From: an uncultured Alphaproteobacteria bacterium
GTDB taxonomy: Bacteria; Pseudomonadota; Alphaproteobacteria; Rs-D84; CACZYB01
Assembly: GCA_934246625.1 (NCBI GenBank)
Contig: CAKQHZ010000001.1
Location: 390,001-422,000, forward strand
Length of the DNA: 32,000 bases
Reading direction: 5' to 3'
A program made the position numbers and the translations under genes. Shown here piece by piece: positions 7,420 to 32,000 of this stretch. A model generated the notes under the pieces. It made no database searches. It was not told the DNA's origin and was given only the letters and a program-made list of their open reading frames with translations. How positions within the stretch are numbered: position 1 is the stretch's first letter; every line of letters begins with the position of its first letter.

Positions 7420-7956
7420 ATGTTAAAAGAAAATAAAGTTTTTAGAAAATGCGACCACCCTGATTGTGATAAAGAAGGGGAATATCGTGCACCCAAAAAT
7501 CGCAACCTTGATGATTACTATTGGTTTTGCCTTAAACATGTAAGTGAGTATAATAAATCATGGAATTATTACGAAGGTATGAGTATTGAGGAAATAGAAG
7601 CTGAAAATAAACGCGATGAAACATGGCAAAGTAAAACATGGAAGTTTGGCGTATCATTGGATAAAATTGCAAAGGAAGGTAGGCTTGAAGACCCATTTGA
7701 AATTTATGCAAAATATATGAAGGGAACAAACTATAAAACCACAAATAAAAAGGTTATAAACCCTATTACCAAAAAGGAACAAGAAGCATTGACTGTGTTT
7801 AATCTTTCATATCCATTTACAAAAGATGAACTTCGTAAAAAATATAAAATCCTTGTAAAAAAACATCACCCAGACTTAAATGGTGGGTCAAAGGAAGCAG
7901 AAGAAAAATTCAAAGTAATTTCTGCTTGCTATACAATACTTCTTAAAAAGTGTTAA
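7420..7956 (+). CDS. J-domain protein with an N-terminal Cys/His-rich module
   Basis: C-terminal J domain LRKKYKILVKKHHPDLNGGSKEAEEKFKVISACY contains the HPD motif. The N-terminus reads CDHPDCDKEGEYRAPK...WFCLKHV. The start is set at ATG 7420 because the track's 7246 start would overlap xerD. Confidence 0.7.
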   Translation: MLKENKVFRKCDHPDCDKEGEYRAPKNRNLDDYYWFCLKHVSEYNKSWNYYEGMSIEEIEAENKRDETWQSKTWKFGVSLDKIAKEGRLEDPFEIYAKYMKGTNYKTTNKKVINPITKKEQEALTVFNLSYPFTKDELRKKYKILVKKHHPDLNGGSKEAEEKFKVISACYTILLKKC

Positions 7957-8703
7957 TTACTTTTTTATATTCATCATTGATTTTATTTTATGTCTTTTGA
8001 ATGCCATAAAGAATACATTTATCATTGCTTCGATGAAAATTTTCTTGCTCATTTTTGATTTACCGACACGACGGTCTTCAAATACAATAGGTGTTTCCTT
8101 TATTTTTAATTTTGCAAGTGCATTTCGAAATTTCATTTCAATTTGGAAACAATATCCGTTTGAAATAATCGTATCAAGGTTGATTGTTTCAAGTGATTTT
8201 TTTGTATAACAATTATATCCACCTGTTAAATCGTGAATATTTGTTAAAAGCAAAATTCGAGAATAAAGAGAACCTCCCTTTGAAATAAGTTTTCTTAAAA
8301 ATCCCCAATTTACAACACTTCCACCCTTTACATAACGGGAACCAATAACCAAATCATTACCAGCATCAACCAACTTTAACATATCCTTTATATAAATAGG
8401 ATTGTGAGAAAAATCTGCATCTTGAGAAATGAAAATATCAAATCCATTTGAAATTGCCCATTTAAAACCTTCTATATATGCGGTGCCAAGACCAAGTTTT
8501 CCCTTTCGGTGCATAATATGAAGTTTGCCATCAAATACATTGTCCTTTATCAATTTATCAACAATTTTACCTGTGCCATCAGGAGAGTTATCATCAACTA
8601 TTAAAATATGAATATTGGGATTTACCTTTAAATCTGTTTTGATAATATTCTTGATATTTCCTTTTTCATTATATGTAGGAATAACTACACAAACTTTTTT
8701 CAT
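7957..8703 (-). CDS. family-2 glycosyltransferase, Dpm1-like polyprenol-phosphate mannosyl/glycosyl transferase
   Basis: VVIPTYNEKGNI, LIVDDNSPDGTG, GKLGLGTAY and DADFSHNP are typical of Dpm1/Ppm1-like GT2 enzymes. The start is set at ATG 8703 (MKKVCVV), preceded by AAAGGA. The track's upstream extension has no support. Confidence 0.8.
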   Translation of the reverse strand: MKKVCVVIPTYNEKGNIKNIIKTDLKVNPNIHILIVDDNSPDGTGKIVDKLIKDNVFDGKLHIMHRKGKLGLGTAYIEGFKWAISNGFDIFISQDADFSHNPIYIKDMLKLVDAGNDLVIGSRYVKGGSVVNWGFLRKLISKGGSLYSRILLLTNIHDLTGGYNCYTKKSLETINLDTIISNGYCFQIEMKFRNALAKLKIKETPIVFEDRRVGKSKMSKKIFIEAMINVFFMAFKRHKIKSMMNIKK

Positions 8704-8781
8704 AATACGTCCTTTGGTTATTTTAATAGGAATATTATAGCAATTACAAAATATTAGGGCAATACCTTTTTTAATAAAGTC

Positions 8782-8810
8782 TTTACAAATTATGATTTTT
8801 GATATATTTT
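8782..8810 (+). promoter_or_regulatory. candidate sigma-70 promoter for the Cys-rich gene cassette
   Basis: TTTACA (8782-8787), a 17-nt spacer, then TATTTT (8805-8810). Such matches are easy to find in AT-rich DNA, so this is tentative. Confidence 0.3.
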
Positions 8811-8814
8811 GAAA

Positions 8815-8989
8815 TAGATACTTGGAGACAAGTATTGGGACCACAAAATCCCGAACAGTAATAGTAGTAATTTCTACTGAGCTATTCTCCTTTGGGGAGT
8901 GTAGCTCTATAAGGCATAACTATGCGCGAAAAAGTTACGCCATTACTGTGATGGTTTTGTGCCTCCCCACCAAAAAAGGGAGAAAGAAA
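8815..8989 (+). promoter_or_regulatory. long structured 5' leader or possible cis-regulatory RNA upstream of the first Cys-rich gene
   Basis: About 47% GC by hand count over 8881-8970, inside an otherwise AT-rich intergenic region. Imperfect 12-bp hairpin at 8879-8907. A 9-bp hairpin GGCATAACT/AGTTACGCC at 8913-8941. GGGGAG (8894-8899), CTCCCC (8963-8968) and the SD GGGAGA (8978-8983) can form mutually exclusive pairings. Confidence 0.4.
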
Positions 8990-9547
8990 ATGAACCATGA
9001 CAAATTAAATTTATCAAAAGATAAAATCTTTAAACTTTCGATTATTATATCAACCTTAATTATCAGTTCTTCGGCTTTCGCAAGTGGATATGGATATTAC
9101 CCAGGTGGTGGAACAAGTTATACTGTTTTTGGACCAAGCACTGAAAAGACATCTTCTTCATCAAGTTCAAAGACATTTGGAACATCATTGAAAGATATGT
9201 TATCAAAATACTGTGTTCCGACGGTTGGCAATTGCGACAAAAAGGCTACCTACAAAGAAAATATAATAGCACCTGGCGTTAAAAAAACTTGGTGCGATTG
9301 TGCCAACATCAACAAATTCTATAACTCTTCGAATCGTTCTTGCGAGAACTGTATCCTCGGCTCTTTCGCAACCTCAGACTATAAAACTTGTGAGCCTATT
9401 CATTGCCCTGACGGCTATGTTGCGACTTTGATTTCCAAAGGGGCGTGTCCAGATGGCTATACTTTGCAACAAATCAATGTGGCTTCGGGTTGTGGCGAGG
9501 GTTATGCGTTGAAGAAGTATAATCCGGCGACGAAGAGTTTTAATTAA
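8990..9547 (+). CDS. secreted cysteine-rich repeat protein (185 aa)
   Basis: RBS AGGGAGA lies 6 nt before ATG 8990. Signal peptide KIFKLSIIISTLIISSSAFA/SG, then a Gly/Ser/Tyr-rich linker, then 10 Cys with CENCILGSF, CPDGY (twice) and CGEGY units. Confidence 0.7.
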   Translation: MNHDKLNLSKDKIFKLSIIISTLIISSSAFASGYGYYPGGGTSYTVFGPSTEKTSSSSSSKTFGTSLKDMLSKYCVPTVGNCDKKATYKENIIAPGVKKTWCDCANINKFYNSSNRSCENCILGSFATSDYKTCEPIHCPDGYVATLISKGACPDGYTLQQINVASGCGEGYALKKYNPATKSFN

Positions 9548-9654: not shown

Positions 9655-10182
9655 ATGAAAACCATGAAGAAAAAGAAATTAGCGGTGATAGGGATAGCGG
9701 GAATGCTCTCTGCGACAGCACCTGCCTCCGCTCAAACATTTTATCAATGTATGCCGATAACTTGCCCAGCAGGTAAGTATTTAGAAAATGGAAAATGTAA
9801 TAACTGTCCTTCTGGAACATATAATAACAAATCTGGACAAGTTGGAAGTGAAAGTTGTATAAAATGCCCTTCTGGAACAGGCTCATGGAACGGTGCTTCA
9901 AAATGTGAAGCTCCATCTTGTTTAAAAATTTACGGTGTAAATAATTCAAATAATTTTTCTAGCAAATATAAAGAAATATGCTTAAATCAAACTGTAAATT
10001 GCACCTGTGATTTTATTTCAAATTTATTTAATGGTAGTGGCTGTGATAGTCAAGGTCGCTCTTATTTTAGCAGAGGTGCAATAAAATGTAGTAATGGATA
10101 TCACGATTTCTTTACAGGAAAGAGAAAGGCTGTCTGTGAAAATCAAAATAATTGTTTATATTTAAAAATTATAAATGATTAA
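9655..10182 (+). CDS. secreted cysteine-rich repeat protein (175 aa), distant paralog of 8990-9547
   Basis: RBS AAGGAG lies upstream. Signal peptide KKKLAVIGIAGMLSATAPASA/QT. There are 15 Cys, with CPAGKY, CNNCPSGTY and CIKCPSGTGSW units. Confidence 0.75.
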   Translation: MKTMKKKKLAVIGIAGMLSATAPASAQTFYQCMPITCPAGKYLENGKCNNCPSGTYNNKSGQVGSESCIKCPSGTGSWNGASKCEAPSCLKIYGVNNSNNFSSKYKEICLNQTVNCTCDFISNLFNGSGCDSQGRSYFSRGAIKCSNGYHDFFTGKRKAVCENQNNCLYLKIIND

Positions 10183-13030: not shown

Positions 13031-13405
13031 TTATTCTTTACAGCCACAACCTGCTTGTTCACACATATTGCCTTCTGCTGAATAATCTCCATCTTTTATT
13101 TTTTCTTCTATTCTATCCATTTTGGATTTAATCGCTGCTGAAACATCAATTCCCAAACATTTTGCAAGAAGGTGAGAATATATAATCACACTTGCAAATT
13201 TGTTATCAAGTCGGCTTGGCATATCTAAACGCTTACGACTTGCAAAACCAAATGAACGAGCCACTTCACGAGAAAGTTTGCCGGTGGATTCTGCAACTTT
13301 CATCATTAAAAGAAAAGCCTGCATTTCCTTTGTTTGAGTTTTATATGTATCTGTCCATTTTTCGTAATACATATCAATAAATTTTTGTATATCTTTCATT
13401 TCCAT
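13031..13405 (-). CDS. MazG-like all-alpha NTP-pyrophosphohydrolase-fold protein, probably non-catalytic, with a C-terminal Cys cluster
   Basis: The helix pattern LLMMKVAESTGKLSREV...NKFASVIIYSHLLAKCLGIDV resembles YpjD/MazG-like proteins, but the ExxE and ExxD acidic ligands are mostly missing. The tail is CEQAGCGCKE. The start is set at ATG 13405, preceded by AAGGGAGA. Confidence 0.5.
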   Translation of the reverse strand: MEMKDIQKFIDMYYEKWTDTYKTQTKEMQAFLLMMKVAESTGKLSREVARSFGFASRKRLDMPSRLDNKFASVIIYSHLLAKCLGIDVSAAIKSKMDRIEEKIKDGDYSAEGNMCEQAGCGCKE

Positions 13406-13502
13406 TTTAATCTCCCTTATGTTGTTAATATATGCATAATGCAAATAAATTATACCTTAAATAAGGGGACAAACCTATAAGTCTATATTCAAAGGAAAGA
13501 TT

Positions 13503-28252: not shown

Positions 28253-29206
28253 ATGACTTATTTGGATTATTTTCATTTCGATAAAGAACCTTTTCCAACA
28301 ACAACTTTTAATAACTATATTTATGAAAATAAAGGACAATTTAAAATTATTGATGATATAGTTAATTCTATTAGATTTAACTCTGGTATTTATTCAATTA
28401 TTGGCTCTGAAGGTGTTGGAAAAACCTTTGTTTTACGACAAATTCAACAAAACCTTAAAAATAACGATATAGTGGTTTTCATATCTGCAAATGAAAATTT
28501 AGATATTTTAAAAACTATAAACGACCAAATAACTTTTGCATCAAAAAAACAAAATGTAGAAGATATTTTTCAAATAATTTCCAAATATTACAAAAAGGGT
28601 CAAAATATTATCTTTCTTATTGATAATATGCAAAACTTAGATAAAAAACAAATCACAAATTTGACTGCATTGATAGATGTTTTGCCATATTTAAAAATTG
28701 TTGCAACTGGTGATAAGTCATTAAAAAAACTTTTTAATAATAAGAAATATAAAATCCTTAAAACAAAAATGGTAAAGCAATATAAACTTTCATACCTTTC
28801 ATTTACAAAGGCAATGAAGTATATAAACTCTATTTCTGTTGATGCGTTGTCATTAAGCCAATATAAAAAAGTCATCGGATTTTTGCCAAGAGCTTTTATT
28901 TCATATATATCCAACAGAAATATTAAAAATATCAATTTTATTACAACCGAAGCTATAAAAAAAGCGTATGAAAATAAAAATAAAGTTGTAAAAATCAAAG
29001 ATGTTTATGATGTGGCAAAAACAAATTTTCATATTGTGAAGGAAAATATCTATCTTAAATTTCAAAAGATTTTCTTTTGGATTTTGGTTGTGGTTTCAAT
29101 GTATTTTTGCTTTAAACTTTTTGCGGATAGAAACTATCTTCTTCAAAAAATAGAAGTTGAAAAATCTCTTGATAAACAAGAAAAAAGTTTTGAAAAACTA
29201 CACTAA
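28253..29206 (+). CDS. ExeA/GspA-like AAA ATPase with a C-terminal membrane anchor
   Basis: The N-terminus YLDYFHFDKEPFPTT is typical of the ExeA family. Walker A is GSEGVGKT. The Walker B position reads IIFLIDN (DN instead of DE). One TM helix (IFFWILVVVSMYFCFKLF) near the C-terminus. No peptidoglycan-binding domain. Confidence 0.6.
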   Translation: MTYLDYFHFDKEPFPTTTFNNYIYENKGQFKIIDDIVNSIRFNSGIYSIIGSEGVGKTFVLRQIQQNLKNNDIVVFISANENLDILKTINDQITFASKKQNVEDIFQIISKYYKKGQNIIFLIDNMQNLDKKQITNLTALIDVLPYLKIVATGDKSLKKLFNNKKYKILKTKMVKQYKLSYLSFTKAMKYINSISVDALSLSQYKKVIGFLPRAFISYISNRNIKNINFITTEAIKKAYENKNKVVKIKDVYDVAKTNFHIVKENIYLKFQKIFFWILVVVSMYFCFKLFADRNYLLQKIEVEKSLDKQEKSFEKLH

Positions 29207-30834
29207 TATTTCATTGATTTAAGTTTATTATAAACTTCACTATTTCCAATTATTTTTGTTGCAATAGTAATTGGAAGTTTTTGTATATCCTTAAGTGGAT
29301 AAAGTGCAGGACAAGTTTTTCTTACCCTTTCAATATCTGTATTTGATGGAGTTGCTAAAAATCTTTCACGATTATCCTTGAACTTTCCATCCTTTACATT
29401 TGAAATAAATATATCTATATCAGAATCAGTTTTGAAACTTGAAAGACAAACAAGTGGTATTACCCCAACCTTATTTAAAACATAATCGTTTGGTGATACA
29501 ACTTGTTTTGTTGTAAATGTTATTTGGGCTTTATTCGGTAAATCAAAAGTTTCCTTAACTGTGCCATTTCCAAATGTTGGTGAACCAATCAAAACTGCAC
29601 GTCCCATTGATTGAAGTATAAATGCAAAGATTTCAGCTTCTGCTTTTGTAGTATTATCCGCAATTATAACAATAGGTTTGTCGTTTAAAATATCACCACT
29701 TTTTGCGGTATAGGATTGATTTTTATTTGAACCAAGACCCTTTGTTTTAAGAATTTCACCACCATTTATAAATAAATTTGCCATTTCAACAGCTTCGGTA
29801 AAATCGCCACCACCACTCGCACGCAAATCAATAATTAAACCATCTGCCTTTGATTTAACCTTATCAATACTATCTTTTAATTCATAAGATGATTTTGGTT
29901 TAAAATTCATAATTGAAATTACTGGAACTTTTGGATTTGCAATATCAACATATATTGATGGAACAATAACCTTGTTTCGTTTTACATAAACTTCATCTGT
30001 TTGACCACTTATGTAAGAAATATAGTTTATATGCACAATTTCAGATATATCATTATTGAACGTTGCTTCTATCTCTTCGTCTTTTAATTTTGATACAGGA
30101 ACAGTATTCAAATGTGTGATTAAATCACCCTCCACTATATTTGTATGATATAAAGGCGAATCGTTAATAATGCTTAATACTTGAAGTCCATAAGGTGTTC
30201 TTCTGTATGTAAAACCAAGAATATGTGAGTTGTATTCATTTTTCTTTTTAAGCAAACTTATATTATCACTATACTTTGCATTTTCATCTAAACTTTTAAG
30301 TAAATATGTGGAAGTAAGATAGTAAATTTGTTCTGGATGAACATTTTTTACACCTTGATTTATCTCCCTTAATGATAAAATAACATTTACAATTAAATTT
30401 GCCCAAGCACGAGTATCTCCTTCAACTGGAGTATTAAAATTACCTATTAACTTTAGGTTCTTATCATGCACAAGAACTCTAGTATTCGCAATAGTAATAT
30501 CTAATTTACCATAAAAGCCTGATAAACCTTCTAAAACATAATTCAACATTTTAACATAAGGTATGTCATACACAAAATTATCTGATAATGTTTGAAGAAG
30601 TGCTGTGTAAAAATCAGATGCTTGTTGAATTGAAAAATTATCAACTATATCAGTTCCATTTAACCAATATTCGTATTTATTATATGAATACTTTTGTCTG
30701 TCTTCCTTTGATATAGGGATTATTTCAACTGATTTAGTATTTTTTACTACAGAGGGAACTGTATTTGCAAAAACCATAGAAGGCATTAAAAATGCTCCTA
30801 TAATTAACTTTACAAAAAACTTTCTTCCCCCCAT
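29203..30834 (-). CDS. S41-family (C-terminal processing peptidase-like) protein, catalytic residues apparently substituted
   Basis: Signal peptide, a PDZ-like segment (GDLITHLNTVPV) and the S41 core IIDLRASGGGDF...VIIADNTTKAEAEIFAFILQSMGRAVLIGSPTFGNGTVKE. TKAEAE replaces SASASE and GNG replaces GKG. Confidence 0.7.
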   Translation of the reverse strand: MGGRKFFVKLIIGAFLMPSMVFANTVPSVVKNTKSVEIIPISKEDRQKYSYNKYEYWLNGTDIVDNFSIQQASDFYTALLQTLSDNFVYDIPYVKMLNYVLEGLSGFYGKLDITIANTRVLVHDKNLKLIGNFNTPVEGDTRAWANLIVNVILSLREINQGVKNVHPEQIYYLTSTYLLKSLDENAKYSDNISLLKKKNEYNSHILGFTYRRTPYGLQVLSIINDSPLYHTNIVEGDLITHLNTVPVSKLKDEEIEATFNNDISEIVHINYISYISGQTDEVYVKRNKVIVPSIYVDIANPKVPVISIMNFKPKSSYELKDSIDKVKSKADGLIIDLRASGGGDFTEAVEMANLFINGGEILKTKGLGSNKNQSYTAKSGDILNDKPIVIIADNTTKAEAEIFAFILQSMGRAVLIGSPTFGNGTVKETFDLPNKAQITFTTKQVVSPNDYVLNKVGVIPLVCLSSFKTDSDIDIFISNVKDGKFKDNRERFLATPSNTDIERVRKTCPALYPLKDIQKLPITIATKIIGNSEVYNKLKSMKY

Positions 30835-30845
30835 ATATAATTCCT

Positions 30846-31739
30846 TTATTTTATTCGTGATTTGTTAAATAAAAGCAATGATGATGTTGATAAAAACATT
30901 GAAGAGTAAGTTCCAATGATTATACCAAATAACATAATTGCAGAAAAGCCACGTAAAACTTCACCACCAAACAAATAAATTGCAAGAACGGCAAATATTG
31001 TTGTCATTCCAGTCAAAATTGTTCGTGAAAATGTTTCATTGATTGAAAGGTCTACAACATCACTTAATGACTTTGATTTATATTTTTTAAGATTTTCTCT
31101 TACTCTATCATAAATAACAACTGTATCGTTAATTGAATAACCTGCAAGTGTTAAAAGTGCAGCAAGTGTTGTTAAATCAAATTCTATACCTGTAATACAT
31201 AACATTGCCAAAGCCAACAAGACATCGTGCAAAAGTGAAAGTCCAGCGCCAACTGCAAATGGCAATTCAAATCTTATCCATATATAAATAGAAATTACAA
31301 GAATTGAAAGAAGAACGGCTAATGTTCCATTTTTAACCAAATCTGCACCAACCTTTGGTCCAACAATTTGTGTATTTCTGTATTCAACTGTTTCACCCAA
31401 AATATTTTTTACTGATACCAAATCAGATGTGATTTCGGTTTCGGTTTTATGTCCCTGTGGAAGATAGATTGAAACAACATCACCTGTTTCACCTTGGGAT
31501 TGAATTTGTGGTGAAAAAGATTTTAATTCTTCACGTAAATTTTCTATATTTGCCGGTGTTTTTGTTTTGATTTCCAATAATACACCGCCAGAAAAGTCAA
31601 TACCATAATTAAATGGTTTTATAAATAATGTAATTATTGATGCAAGTGAAAATAAGCATGCAATACTTACAAAAAAGATATTTCTTTTCATTATATTAAA
31701 ATGTGTTTGTATTGGAACAACCTTGATAAGTTTAAACAT
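30846..31739 (-). CDS. secF: protein translocase subunit SecF
   Basis: Six-TM SecF topology with GIDFSGG, FELPFAVGAGLSLLHDV and YDRVRENL motifs. Length 297 aa. Confidence 0.88.
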   Translation of the reverse strand: MFKLIKVVPIQTHFNIMKRNIFFVSIACLFSLASIITLFIKPFNYGIDFSGGVLLEIKTKTPANIENLREELKSFSPQIQSQGETGDVVSIYLPQGHKTETEITSDLVSVKNILGETVEYRNTQIVGPKVGADLVKNGTLAVLLSILVISIYIWIRFELPFAVGAGLSLLHDVLLALAMLCITGIEFDLTTLAALLTLAGYSINDTVVIYDRVRENLKKYKSKSLSDVVDLSINETFSRTILTGMTTIFAVLAIYLFGGEVLRGFSAIMLFGIIIGTYSSMFLSTSSLLLFNKSRIK

Positions 31740-31750
31740 AGCAACTTCCT

Positions 31751-32000
31751 TTACTCTATTATCTTTGGAACTGTAAAATATTCACCTTCGTCATCAGGAG
31801 CAGGTGCATTTTCAAGAACCTGTTCACGTGTATTGTCTATACTTACTGTATCAATACGACGAGGAAGTGGGTGATCCGCAACAGAATTAAGTGGTTCAAC
31901 ACCATCAACATTTACGTCATCAAGCCCCTCTATCCATTCAATAACATTTTCAAGTTCACCAACCATTTTTTCAGCCATTTCGTCAGTCATACCGATACGA
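31751..32000 (-). CDS. gatC: Asp-tRNA(Asn)/Glu-tRNA(Gln) amidotransferase subunit C, 5'-partial at window edge
   Basis: ELENVIEWIEGLDDVNVDGVEPL...LPRRIDTV...NAP...EGEYFTVPKIIE matches the GatC C-terminal two-thirds. The frame stays open to base 32000, so the start lies beyond the window. Confidence 0.8.
   Translation of the reverse strand, partial: RIGMTDEMAEKMVGELENVIEWIEGLDDVNVDGVEPLNSVADHPLPRRIDTVSIDNTREQVLENAPAPDDEGEYFTVPKIIE

Follow-up and report, generated by a model that had tools for sequence, protein, structure and literature searches.

What does a C-terminal processing protease (Ctp) do once the residues with which it cuts are gone? Ctp proteases control peptidoglycan hydrolases, signaling, and virulence in many bacteria, and the question is raised by a gene lying near one end of a 32,000-nucleotide (nt) stretch of DNA from an uncultured alphaproteobacterium (GenBank assembly GCA_934246625.1, contig CAKQHZ010000001.1, positions 390,001 to 422,000; the whole stretch is referred to here as the window). 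The gene, a complete coding sequence (CDS) at 29203..30834 on the minus strand, directly follows secF and encodes an S41-like protein of 543 amino acids (aa) plus a stop codon, as read from the list of open reading frames (ORFs) and from Pfam. An earlier account of this DNA, made from its letters alone (the sequence-only reading), had proposed that the product is an S41 peptidase homolog with all three catalytic positions substituted, under selection for its fold. We found that the architecture of a Ctp is present in its entirety, comprising a signal peptide, N-terminal helices, a probable PDZ domain, an S41 core, and a C-terminal domain that bears two paired Cys residues, and we consider it fairly probable that the protein is a periplasmic, dead member of the CtpA type that binds exported polypeptides rather than cleaving them, or that acts as a scaffold or regulator.

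The catalytic columns were mapped with phmmer (HMMER) against PDB chains and in a joint alignment of dead and intact S41 sequences. The core aligned without gaps with Escherichia coli Prc (over the segment of the window protein that runs from iviia to gtvke), placing Ala398 in the column of Prc S452 (Ser430 in the mature numbering), Ser409 in that of D463 (Asp441), and Asn423 in that of K477 (Lys455). These are the three substitutions that the sequence-only reading had claimed, and the Prc sequence that it used, its hand alignment, and its residue numbers all proved to be correct. Alignment with Pseudomonas aeruginosa CtpA (E=1.9e-24, residues 206-469) paired S302 with A398 and K327 with N423, and the third residue of the triad, Gln (CtpA Q331, CtpB Q338), fell in the column of Lys427, the codon of which lies at 29554..29556 on the minus strand. 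Because every catalytically intact S41 sequence in the joint alignment had S/K/Q in the three columns, we concluded that the register was correct; a shifted alignment was rejected, since the alignments to Prc and CtpA and the S/K/Q of the intact sequences agree with one another. Alignments based on profiles and on structures put noncatalytic residues in all of the catalytic columns.

The degenerate segment itself (29566..29649, minus strand) encodes residues 396-423 of the 543-aa ORF, TKAEAEIFAFILQSMGRAVLIGSPTFGN, and includes T396-K397-A398, S409, and N423, as seen in the translation and the alignments. The proposed Ser-Lys-Gln triad of Ctp proteases was defined in two studies (PMC3808539, PMC11021448), according to which the activity of CtpA is abolished by S302A or K327A and CtpB is inactivated by S309A. 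The window protein has neither the nucleophile Ser, nor the general-base Lys of the FGKG motif (CtpB K334), nor the Gln that orients this base from four positions farther on, and it scores 138.3 bits against the NCBIfam model TIGR00225 (prc), short of the cutoff of 218.6 bits, which an intact relative, P0037, exceeds (241.3 bits). Peptide-bond hydrolysis by the Ser-Lys mechanism has therefore, we infer, been lost. The scaffold around the lost residues was described in the sequence-only reading as conserved, and it is: the DLR..GG, E401, GRA, and FGxG motifs are retained, residues D336, R338, E401, G417, G422, G457, and P460, together with D237 and I239 of the PDZ domain, are invariant in dead and intact sequences, and F421 corresponds to CtpA F325, a residue along the substrate path (PMC11021448).

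The domains of the protein could be delimited as follows, with all coordinates referring to the minus strand. A Sec-type signal peptide, also claimed earlier and indeed present, was read from the sequence at residues 1-23 (30766..30834), with MGGRKFFVKLIIGAFLMPSMVFA before the cleavage site and N after it; it contains no lipobox Cys, and the MGG with which the protein starts is conserved in close orthologs. The N-terminal region (residues ~40-195, 30250..30717) consists of an alpha/beta extension and the S41 N-terminal helices, as judged from secondary structure and the predicted local distance difference test (pLDDT), and contains a conserved SLDEN..Y motif (D183, Y188), of which D183 is invariant in intact and dead sequences alike. 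A probable PDZ domain (residues ~200-290, 29965..30237) has L206-G207-F208 at its carboxylate-binding loop and the signature G236-D237-x-I239, and it aligns with the PDZ domain of CtpA, with G207, G236, D237, and I239 conserved; the Pfam PDZ_2 match covers residues 206-253 with E=6e-4 and 20.5 bits, under the cutoff of 27. The Peptidase_S41 core (PF03572; residues 304-460, 29455..29925; E=9.5e-34, 116.8 bits versus a cutoff of 24) keeps the IIDLRASGGGD, EIFA, GRAvLIG, and PTFGxG motifs, and a C-terminal helical domain (residues 463-543, 29206..29448) holds C463 and C508, the only two Cys residues in the protein.

Structure prediction and comparison bore out the S41 assignment. An AlphaFold2 model made with a 33-sequence alignment had a mean pLDDT of 86.3 and a predicted template modeling score (pTM) of 0.80, and it was disordered or of low confidence only at residues 1-37. 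In a Foldseek search of the PDB, P. aeruginosa CtpA, Helicobacter pylori CtpA, Prc, CtpB, and the D1 processing protease were matched with E values of 1e-27 to 1e-20, the best match being CtpA chain 8sxe_A (E=4.4e-27), with a template modeling (TM) score of 0.70; TM scores were at most 0.72 and were normalized by the target. The model thus predicts with confidence that the window protein keeps a CtpA/Prc-like fold, in which a PDZ domain is inserted into a core and cap.

Is the gene then a relic, or has it been maintained without its active site? Gene calls gave an identical 543-aa protein for 12 contigs, which stem from several ENA metagenome samples, and a database search returned 35 full-length orthologs with 99-37% identity, all from metagenome-assembled genomes (MAGs) of uncultured Alphaproteobacteria or "Rickettsiales." Scanning with an alignment of this family only found the gene in 12 species-representative genomes, most of which come from animal guts according to their isolate names (e.g., rumen RUG and RUI MAGs and a water-deer rectum MAG). 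Among the 35 orthologs, the nucleophile column holds Gly in 27, Ala in 6, and Ser and Asn in 1 each, the Lys column is a mixture (13 N, 7 K, 5 S, 4 D, 2 M, 2 E, 1 I, and 1 T), the Gln column is variable, and not one of the 35 has Ser and Lys together. The single ortholog with Ser at the nucleophile position (P0002, 74% identical; DNTTKSEAE) lacks the other two residues, with Asn in place of the Lys and Thr in place of the Gln, and it looks like an A-to-S change that did not bring back a functional dyad.

Pairwise ratios of nonsynonymous to synonymous substitution rates (dN/dS) ranged from 0.11 to 0.25, and the least saturated pair, L005/L006, gave a dN of 0.068 and a dS of 0.605 (ratio, 0.11). 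The S41-like protein is 72% identical to its counterpart in locus L005, compared with 74% for proS, 86% for secF, 84% for plsC, and 52% for tim44; it diverges about as neighboring housekeeping genes do. The ratios indicate that the S41-like gene is under purifying selection. In keeping with the earlier claim that the fold is selected while the Ser-Lys dyad is lost, low dN/dS, a loss shared by orthologs, and a confident structural model go together here, and the SASASE/GKG residues, whose retention in orthologs would have pointed to an error or to very recent decay, are retained neither in orthologs down to 37% identity nor in a sister clade at ~24%. Some assemblies of this group do carry errors (one ortholog has an in-frame TGA, and one source contig has a split secF, as detailed below), which counts in favor of a decaying pseudogene, a sequencing or assembly mistake, or a very recent loss. 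We give such an explanation next to no chance and have rejected it: the same 543-aa product stands on 12 contigs from different samples, full-length orthologs and the sister clade have the same substitutions, dN/dS is low, and the predicted fold is confident.

The in-frame TGA occurs in the gene of locus L013 (3228-4847 on CAYJFW010000024.1, a contig binned as "uncultured Bacteroidales"), where it is the only one, at about residue 218 (IQV*TITK); in P0021, the corresponding database entry, Trp stands at that position. The TGA might have arisen by nonsense mutation or from an error in the sequence, or the gene may have been called with genetic code 4. The taxonomic labels of the L013 and L008 MAGs look like binning errors. 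The split secF is on a contig of the source species (L003, 9085-9989), where two ORFs of 143 and 164 aa, likely the result of a frameshift or assembly error, adjoin an intact S41-like gene.

The family was placed among its relatives with a HMMER scan of a family profile against 1.84 billion representative proteins, which matched 2,673 proteins at E<=1e-30. The best 150 of these 2,673 are mostly ~520 aa long and match from about position 70 to the C terminus, so that most of them have in common the C-terminal domain and the long stretch near the N terminus. The sequence-only reading had noted an unusually long region before the PDZ domain; that region is real, but because it is common to the ~520-aa intact S41 proteins, it is a trait of the subfamily and not a mark of the dead protein. 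The C463/C508 pair likewise occurs in most intact relatives of the ~520-aa subfamily, and it is invariant both in the target family and in the 121 sister-clade sequences described below; the two residues probably form a disulfide in the periplasm. In a comparison set of 156 sequences (147 representatives and 9 references), the S/K/Q triad was intact in 134.

A rough neighbor-joining tree built on BLOSUM distances grouped the target family with a second dead clade (P0036, P0038, P0039, P0130, P0196, and P0255; ~24% identity to the window protein), and both dead clades adjoined the intact proteins P0119 to P0121, of which P0119 has S/K/P in the three columns, with a large intact S/K/Q clade outside. 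A search seeded with P0039 found 933 database proteins at E<=1e-30, and 118 among the matches listed for P0039 were combined with P0036, P0038, and P0039 into a sister-clade set of 121. The nucleophile column of this set is Gly throughout (121/121). In the Lys column, a single sequence has K, and the others have S, N, A, L, T, or R; 119 sequences have Ala where the triad has Gln, and at residue 397, 115 have Arg and 1 has Lys. The two dead clades have in common a T-[KR]-[GA] motif, located where the nucleophile elbow used to be. The simplest reading, which we regard as provisional, is that catalysis was lost once, anciently, for both.

Three further S41 proteins are partly or fully degenerate: P0040 (a 326-aa protein of a Hyphomicrobiales MAG) has S/N/A, P0203, which falls within the intact clade, has S/Q/R, and P0123 has G/E/Y. 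Loss of catalytic residues may recur in this S41 subfamily. A group of AT-rich intact matches (P0059 and P0098-P0107) was considered as possible paralogs from the same lineage and rejected, since they are nearest to an S41 protein of Fictibacillus (Firmicutes), at 38-40% identity; that each has a hydrophobic N-terminal segment resembling a membrane anchor was also counted against that assignment.

The dead gene has a fixed genomic position. It is preceded in the window by secF (30846..31739, minus strand; SecD_SecF_C, E=9e-63, and Sec_GG in Pfam), and 11 nt separate the stop codon of secF from the ATG of the S41-like gene, with an AGGAA ribosome-binding site among them (30841..30845, minus strand). 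The gap between gatC and secF is likewise 11 nt and contains AGGAAG; the cluster begins with gatC, the 3' part of which occupies 31751..32000 on the minus strand, and the gene continues past the window end, its product being 97 aa long in the gene calls on the source contigs. The gatC-secF-S41 order that had been proposed earlier, with the S41-like gene last, was thus borne out. The three genes are tightly packed, which is consistent with cotranscription; promoter-like sites in the region were no commoner than in shuffled sequence, and its sole terminator-like match falls inside the CDS.

The S41-like gene follows secF in all 12 of the genome loci (L001-L016), including the most divergent one, at 37% identity. 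In these loci secF stands apart from secD and yajC, gatC precedes it, and no secD lies within 10 kb, whereas the sister clade keeps yajC, secD, and secF together, in the order yajC-secD-secF-S41-like-PAP2. This order is complete in locus L020; L018 has a restriction-enzyme-like insert between yajC and secD, and the short contig of L019 shows the 3' end of secF, the S41-like gene, and PAP2. Among intact proteins, P0037 and P0120 do not adjoin secF, but the gene for P0119, the closest intact relative examined, stands in the order yajC-secD-secF-S41-M23 peptidase. Since secF is thus followed by the gene of an intact protein as well, the linkage arose before catalysis was lost; a functional tie to export would fit this linkage but is not proved by it. 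On the contig of P0119 (L022), the M23 gene (7616-9151) encodes Csd3_N2 and Peptidase_M23 domains and is a neighbor absent from the dead clades, and secD is divided among three ORFs, probably through assembly errors.

What, then, might such a protein do? With Ala, Asn, and Lys in place of Ser, Lys, and Gln, it would not cleave, an effect like that of the experimental S-to-A substrate-trap mutants, and exported envelope proteins would be captured by their C-terminal or unfolded segments on the core scaffold and probable PDZ domain that it has kept. The protein could then serve as a periplasmic holder, scaffold, or regulator that is co-produced with SecF, and T-(K/R)-G/A at the former nucleophile elbow might be part of a new binding site. 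Peptide binding persists in S-to-A mutants of CtpA and CtpB (PMC11021448, PMC3808539); because it does, and because the L-G-F loop, DLR, and F421 are kept in the window protein, a binder that does not cleave, or else a scaffold or regulator, is the reading that we favor. Several observations weigh against it. The inactivity is itself deduced from the sequence, and the Pfam match of the PDZ domain has a subgathering score. The P1-pocket residue 342, equivalent to CtpA G246, is Asn in about half of the family, sister-clade proteins have a relaxed GG motif, and the former active-site groove may have been remodeled instead of being kept as a groove for peptides. Finally, the linkage to secF predates the loss, so it may represent inherited gene order rather than functional coupling.

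The same elbow motif admits a different reading, in which the protein is still a hydrolase and its catalytic residues have migrated, with Thr395 or Thr396 as the nucleophile and the adjacent Lys/Arg397 as the base. T396 is invariant in the target family, T395 and K397 are nearly so, residue 397 is K/R in 116 of the 121 sister-clade sequences, and the DLR...GG region and E401 are retained; the abstract of a review (PMC10211241) mentions migrated catalytic residues in some pseudoenzymes. We nevertheless consider such a hydrolase very improbable. The T396 column is already Ser/Thr in intact enzymes, where it is the first Ser of the S-A-S that ends in the nucleophile, and for that reason T396 is ancestral and probably structural. 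Most sister-clade sequences have Arg as residue 397, and Arg does poorly as a general base; adjacent turn residues rarely make a dyad. Moreover, the drift of the canonical Lys and Gln columns and the relaxed oxyanion and P1 glycines fit the loss of catalysis, not its relocation.

A noncatalytic protein could also act on an enzyme rather than on export substrates at large. The S41-like protein might be a regulator or adaptor of an envelope enzyme, either a peptidoglycan hydrolase or an intact Ctp/Prc paralog, in the manner of the degenerate LytM (M23) activators of amidases, with its place after secF simply inherited; we regard this as doubtful, though by no means negligible. That secF linkage predates the catalytic loss suits it, as does the M23 peptidase gene that follows the gene for P0119, and the organism has peptidoglycan functions (its envelope and peptidoglycan genes specify an RlpA-like DPBB+SPOR protein, BacA, UppS, and a Pal-like OmpA protein). 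Intact Ctp proteases do target peptidoglycan hydrolases, as in the CtpA-LbcA and Prc-NlpI-MepS systems (PDB titles; PMC11021448). However, the dead genes have neither a hydrolase gene nor an adaptor gene linked to them; they are followed by an opposite-strand AAA ATPase gene in close relatives, by variable genes in others, and by PAP2 in the sister clade. Nor was a second S41 gene found nearby: a search of six-frame ORFs with an intact-S41 hidden Markov model (HMM), covering the window and 10 kb around the gene in the loci L001-L016, found no S41 gene other than the dead one itself. Quite unlikely, in our estimation, is a more far-reaching reading, according to which the dead Ctp is the only Ctp-family protein left in these host-associated Alphaproteobacteria and now assists the Sec machinery: as a periplasmic factor produced alongside SecF, it would catch the C terminus of a polypeptide emerging from SecYEG-SecDF and hold it, or hand it on, uncut. 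If this is true, translocon-associated chaperones of protease origin would be a new class.

Downstream, the S41-like gene converges with a gene for a 317-aa AAA_22 ATPase (28253-29206, plus strand), which overlaps it by 4 nt at its stop codon. The ATPase matches TIGR03015 (ExeA-like/PEP-CTERM-associated) only weakly (53 bits versus a cutoff of 324.5) and has a hydrophobic, apparently membrane-spanning stretch near its C terminus; its adjacency to the S41-like gene is kept in L005-L009 (50-67% identity) and lost in more distant relatives. The G+C content of the window is 31%, and its other genes, besides the envelope and peptidoglycan genes named above, include housekeeping genes typical of Alphaproteobacteria, such as those for a Tim44-like protein, SecB, an AddB-like nuclease, GyrB, DnaG, and ThrS. 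Four ORFs lack Pfam domains, at 9655-10182, 8822-9547, and 31-813 on the plus strand and at 13031-13444 on the minus strand; one among them, of 175 aa, has only a weak Ephrin_rec_like match (E=7e-6). About 7 kb past the window end, a gene on the same strand as the S41-like gene encodes a 574-aa TPR-repeat protein (L001, 923-2647), with only faint Pfam TPR matches. The TPR lipoproteins LbcA and NlpI are known adaptors of CtpA and Prc, respectively.

In the literature searched we found no characterized case of a naturally inactive bacterial Ctp, and we know of none, the known inactive relative in S41 being the vertebrate protein IRBP. An S41 pseudo-protease as such is therefore not new; what is new is that inactive Ctp proteins form a clade, large, old, and linked to secF, in uncultured Alphaproteobacteria associated with the gut. 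The window protein shows what defines an S41 pseudoenzyme, in that the fold is kept, the Ser is lost, and selection is purifying, and also what defines this clade, namely, a T-[KR]-[GA] elbow, the absence of a Ser-Lys dyad, the pair of Cys residues (C463/C508), and a position directly after secF. Together with its intact sister proteins, the clade offers a natural experiment in how a PDZ-gated protease is repurposed, and the link that it suggests between Sec export and a PDZ protein can be put to the test. It also calls for a correction of annotation, since dead proteins are labeled "S41 family peptidase" or "carboxyl-terminal processing protease" in current databases, where "PDZ domain-containing protein" and "hypothetical protein" are found as well.

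The closest known systems are the CtpA-type proteases (MEROPS S41A: P. aeruginosa and H. pylori CtpA, Bacillus subtilis CtpB, and E. coli Prc/Tsp), with which the window protein shares homologous N-terminal helices, PDZ region, and S41 core, secretion to the periplasm, the scaffold motifs, and the glycine of the PDZ carboxylate loop. It differs from them in having Ala/Asn/Lys for Ser/Lys/Gln, in columns that vary among its orthologs, in its T-[KR]-[GA] elbow and fixed place after secF, and in two features that it shares with the ~520-aa subfamily, namely, an added N-terminal extension of ~100 aa and the C-terminal domain that bears the Cys pair. The intact members of that subfamily (e.g., P0037 and P0119-P0121) are equal to it in length and architecture, with the same N-terminal extension and C463/C508 pair, but they retain S/K/Q (S/K/P in P0119). 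The S41 modules of IRBP (RBP3) are homologous to residues 329-464 (E=1.8e-16), and there, too, the catalytic Ser at the start of a helix has been lost while nearby residues are conserved. Vertebrate IRBP is a secreted, retinoid-binding protein of four modules that arose by horizontal transfer from bacteria, followed by loss of the Ser (PMC10120077). In contrast, the window protein is a single bacterial module that appears to keep its PDZ domain, the IRBP match is confined to the S41 core, and bacterial CtpA is closer to it than IRBP is (E=1.9e-24 versus 1.8e-16); the Ser losses in IRBP and in this clade are independent. Hydrolase folds without catalytic residues have been put to new use elsewhere: Clostridioides difficile CspC and CspA are pseudo-proteases of the subtilisin (S8) family that are reused for sensing or regulation, and the degenerate LytM factors EnvC and NlpD (M23), which have no catalytic residues, are reused for regulation. 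The likeness of the window protein to these is functional only, for their folds (S8 and M23) are unrelated to its own, and we found neither homology nor shared context; what they have in common with it is a hydrolase fold that persists without its catalytic residues.

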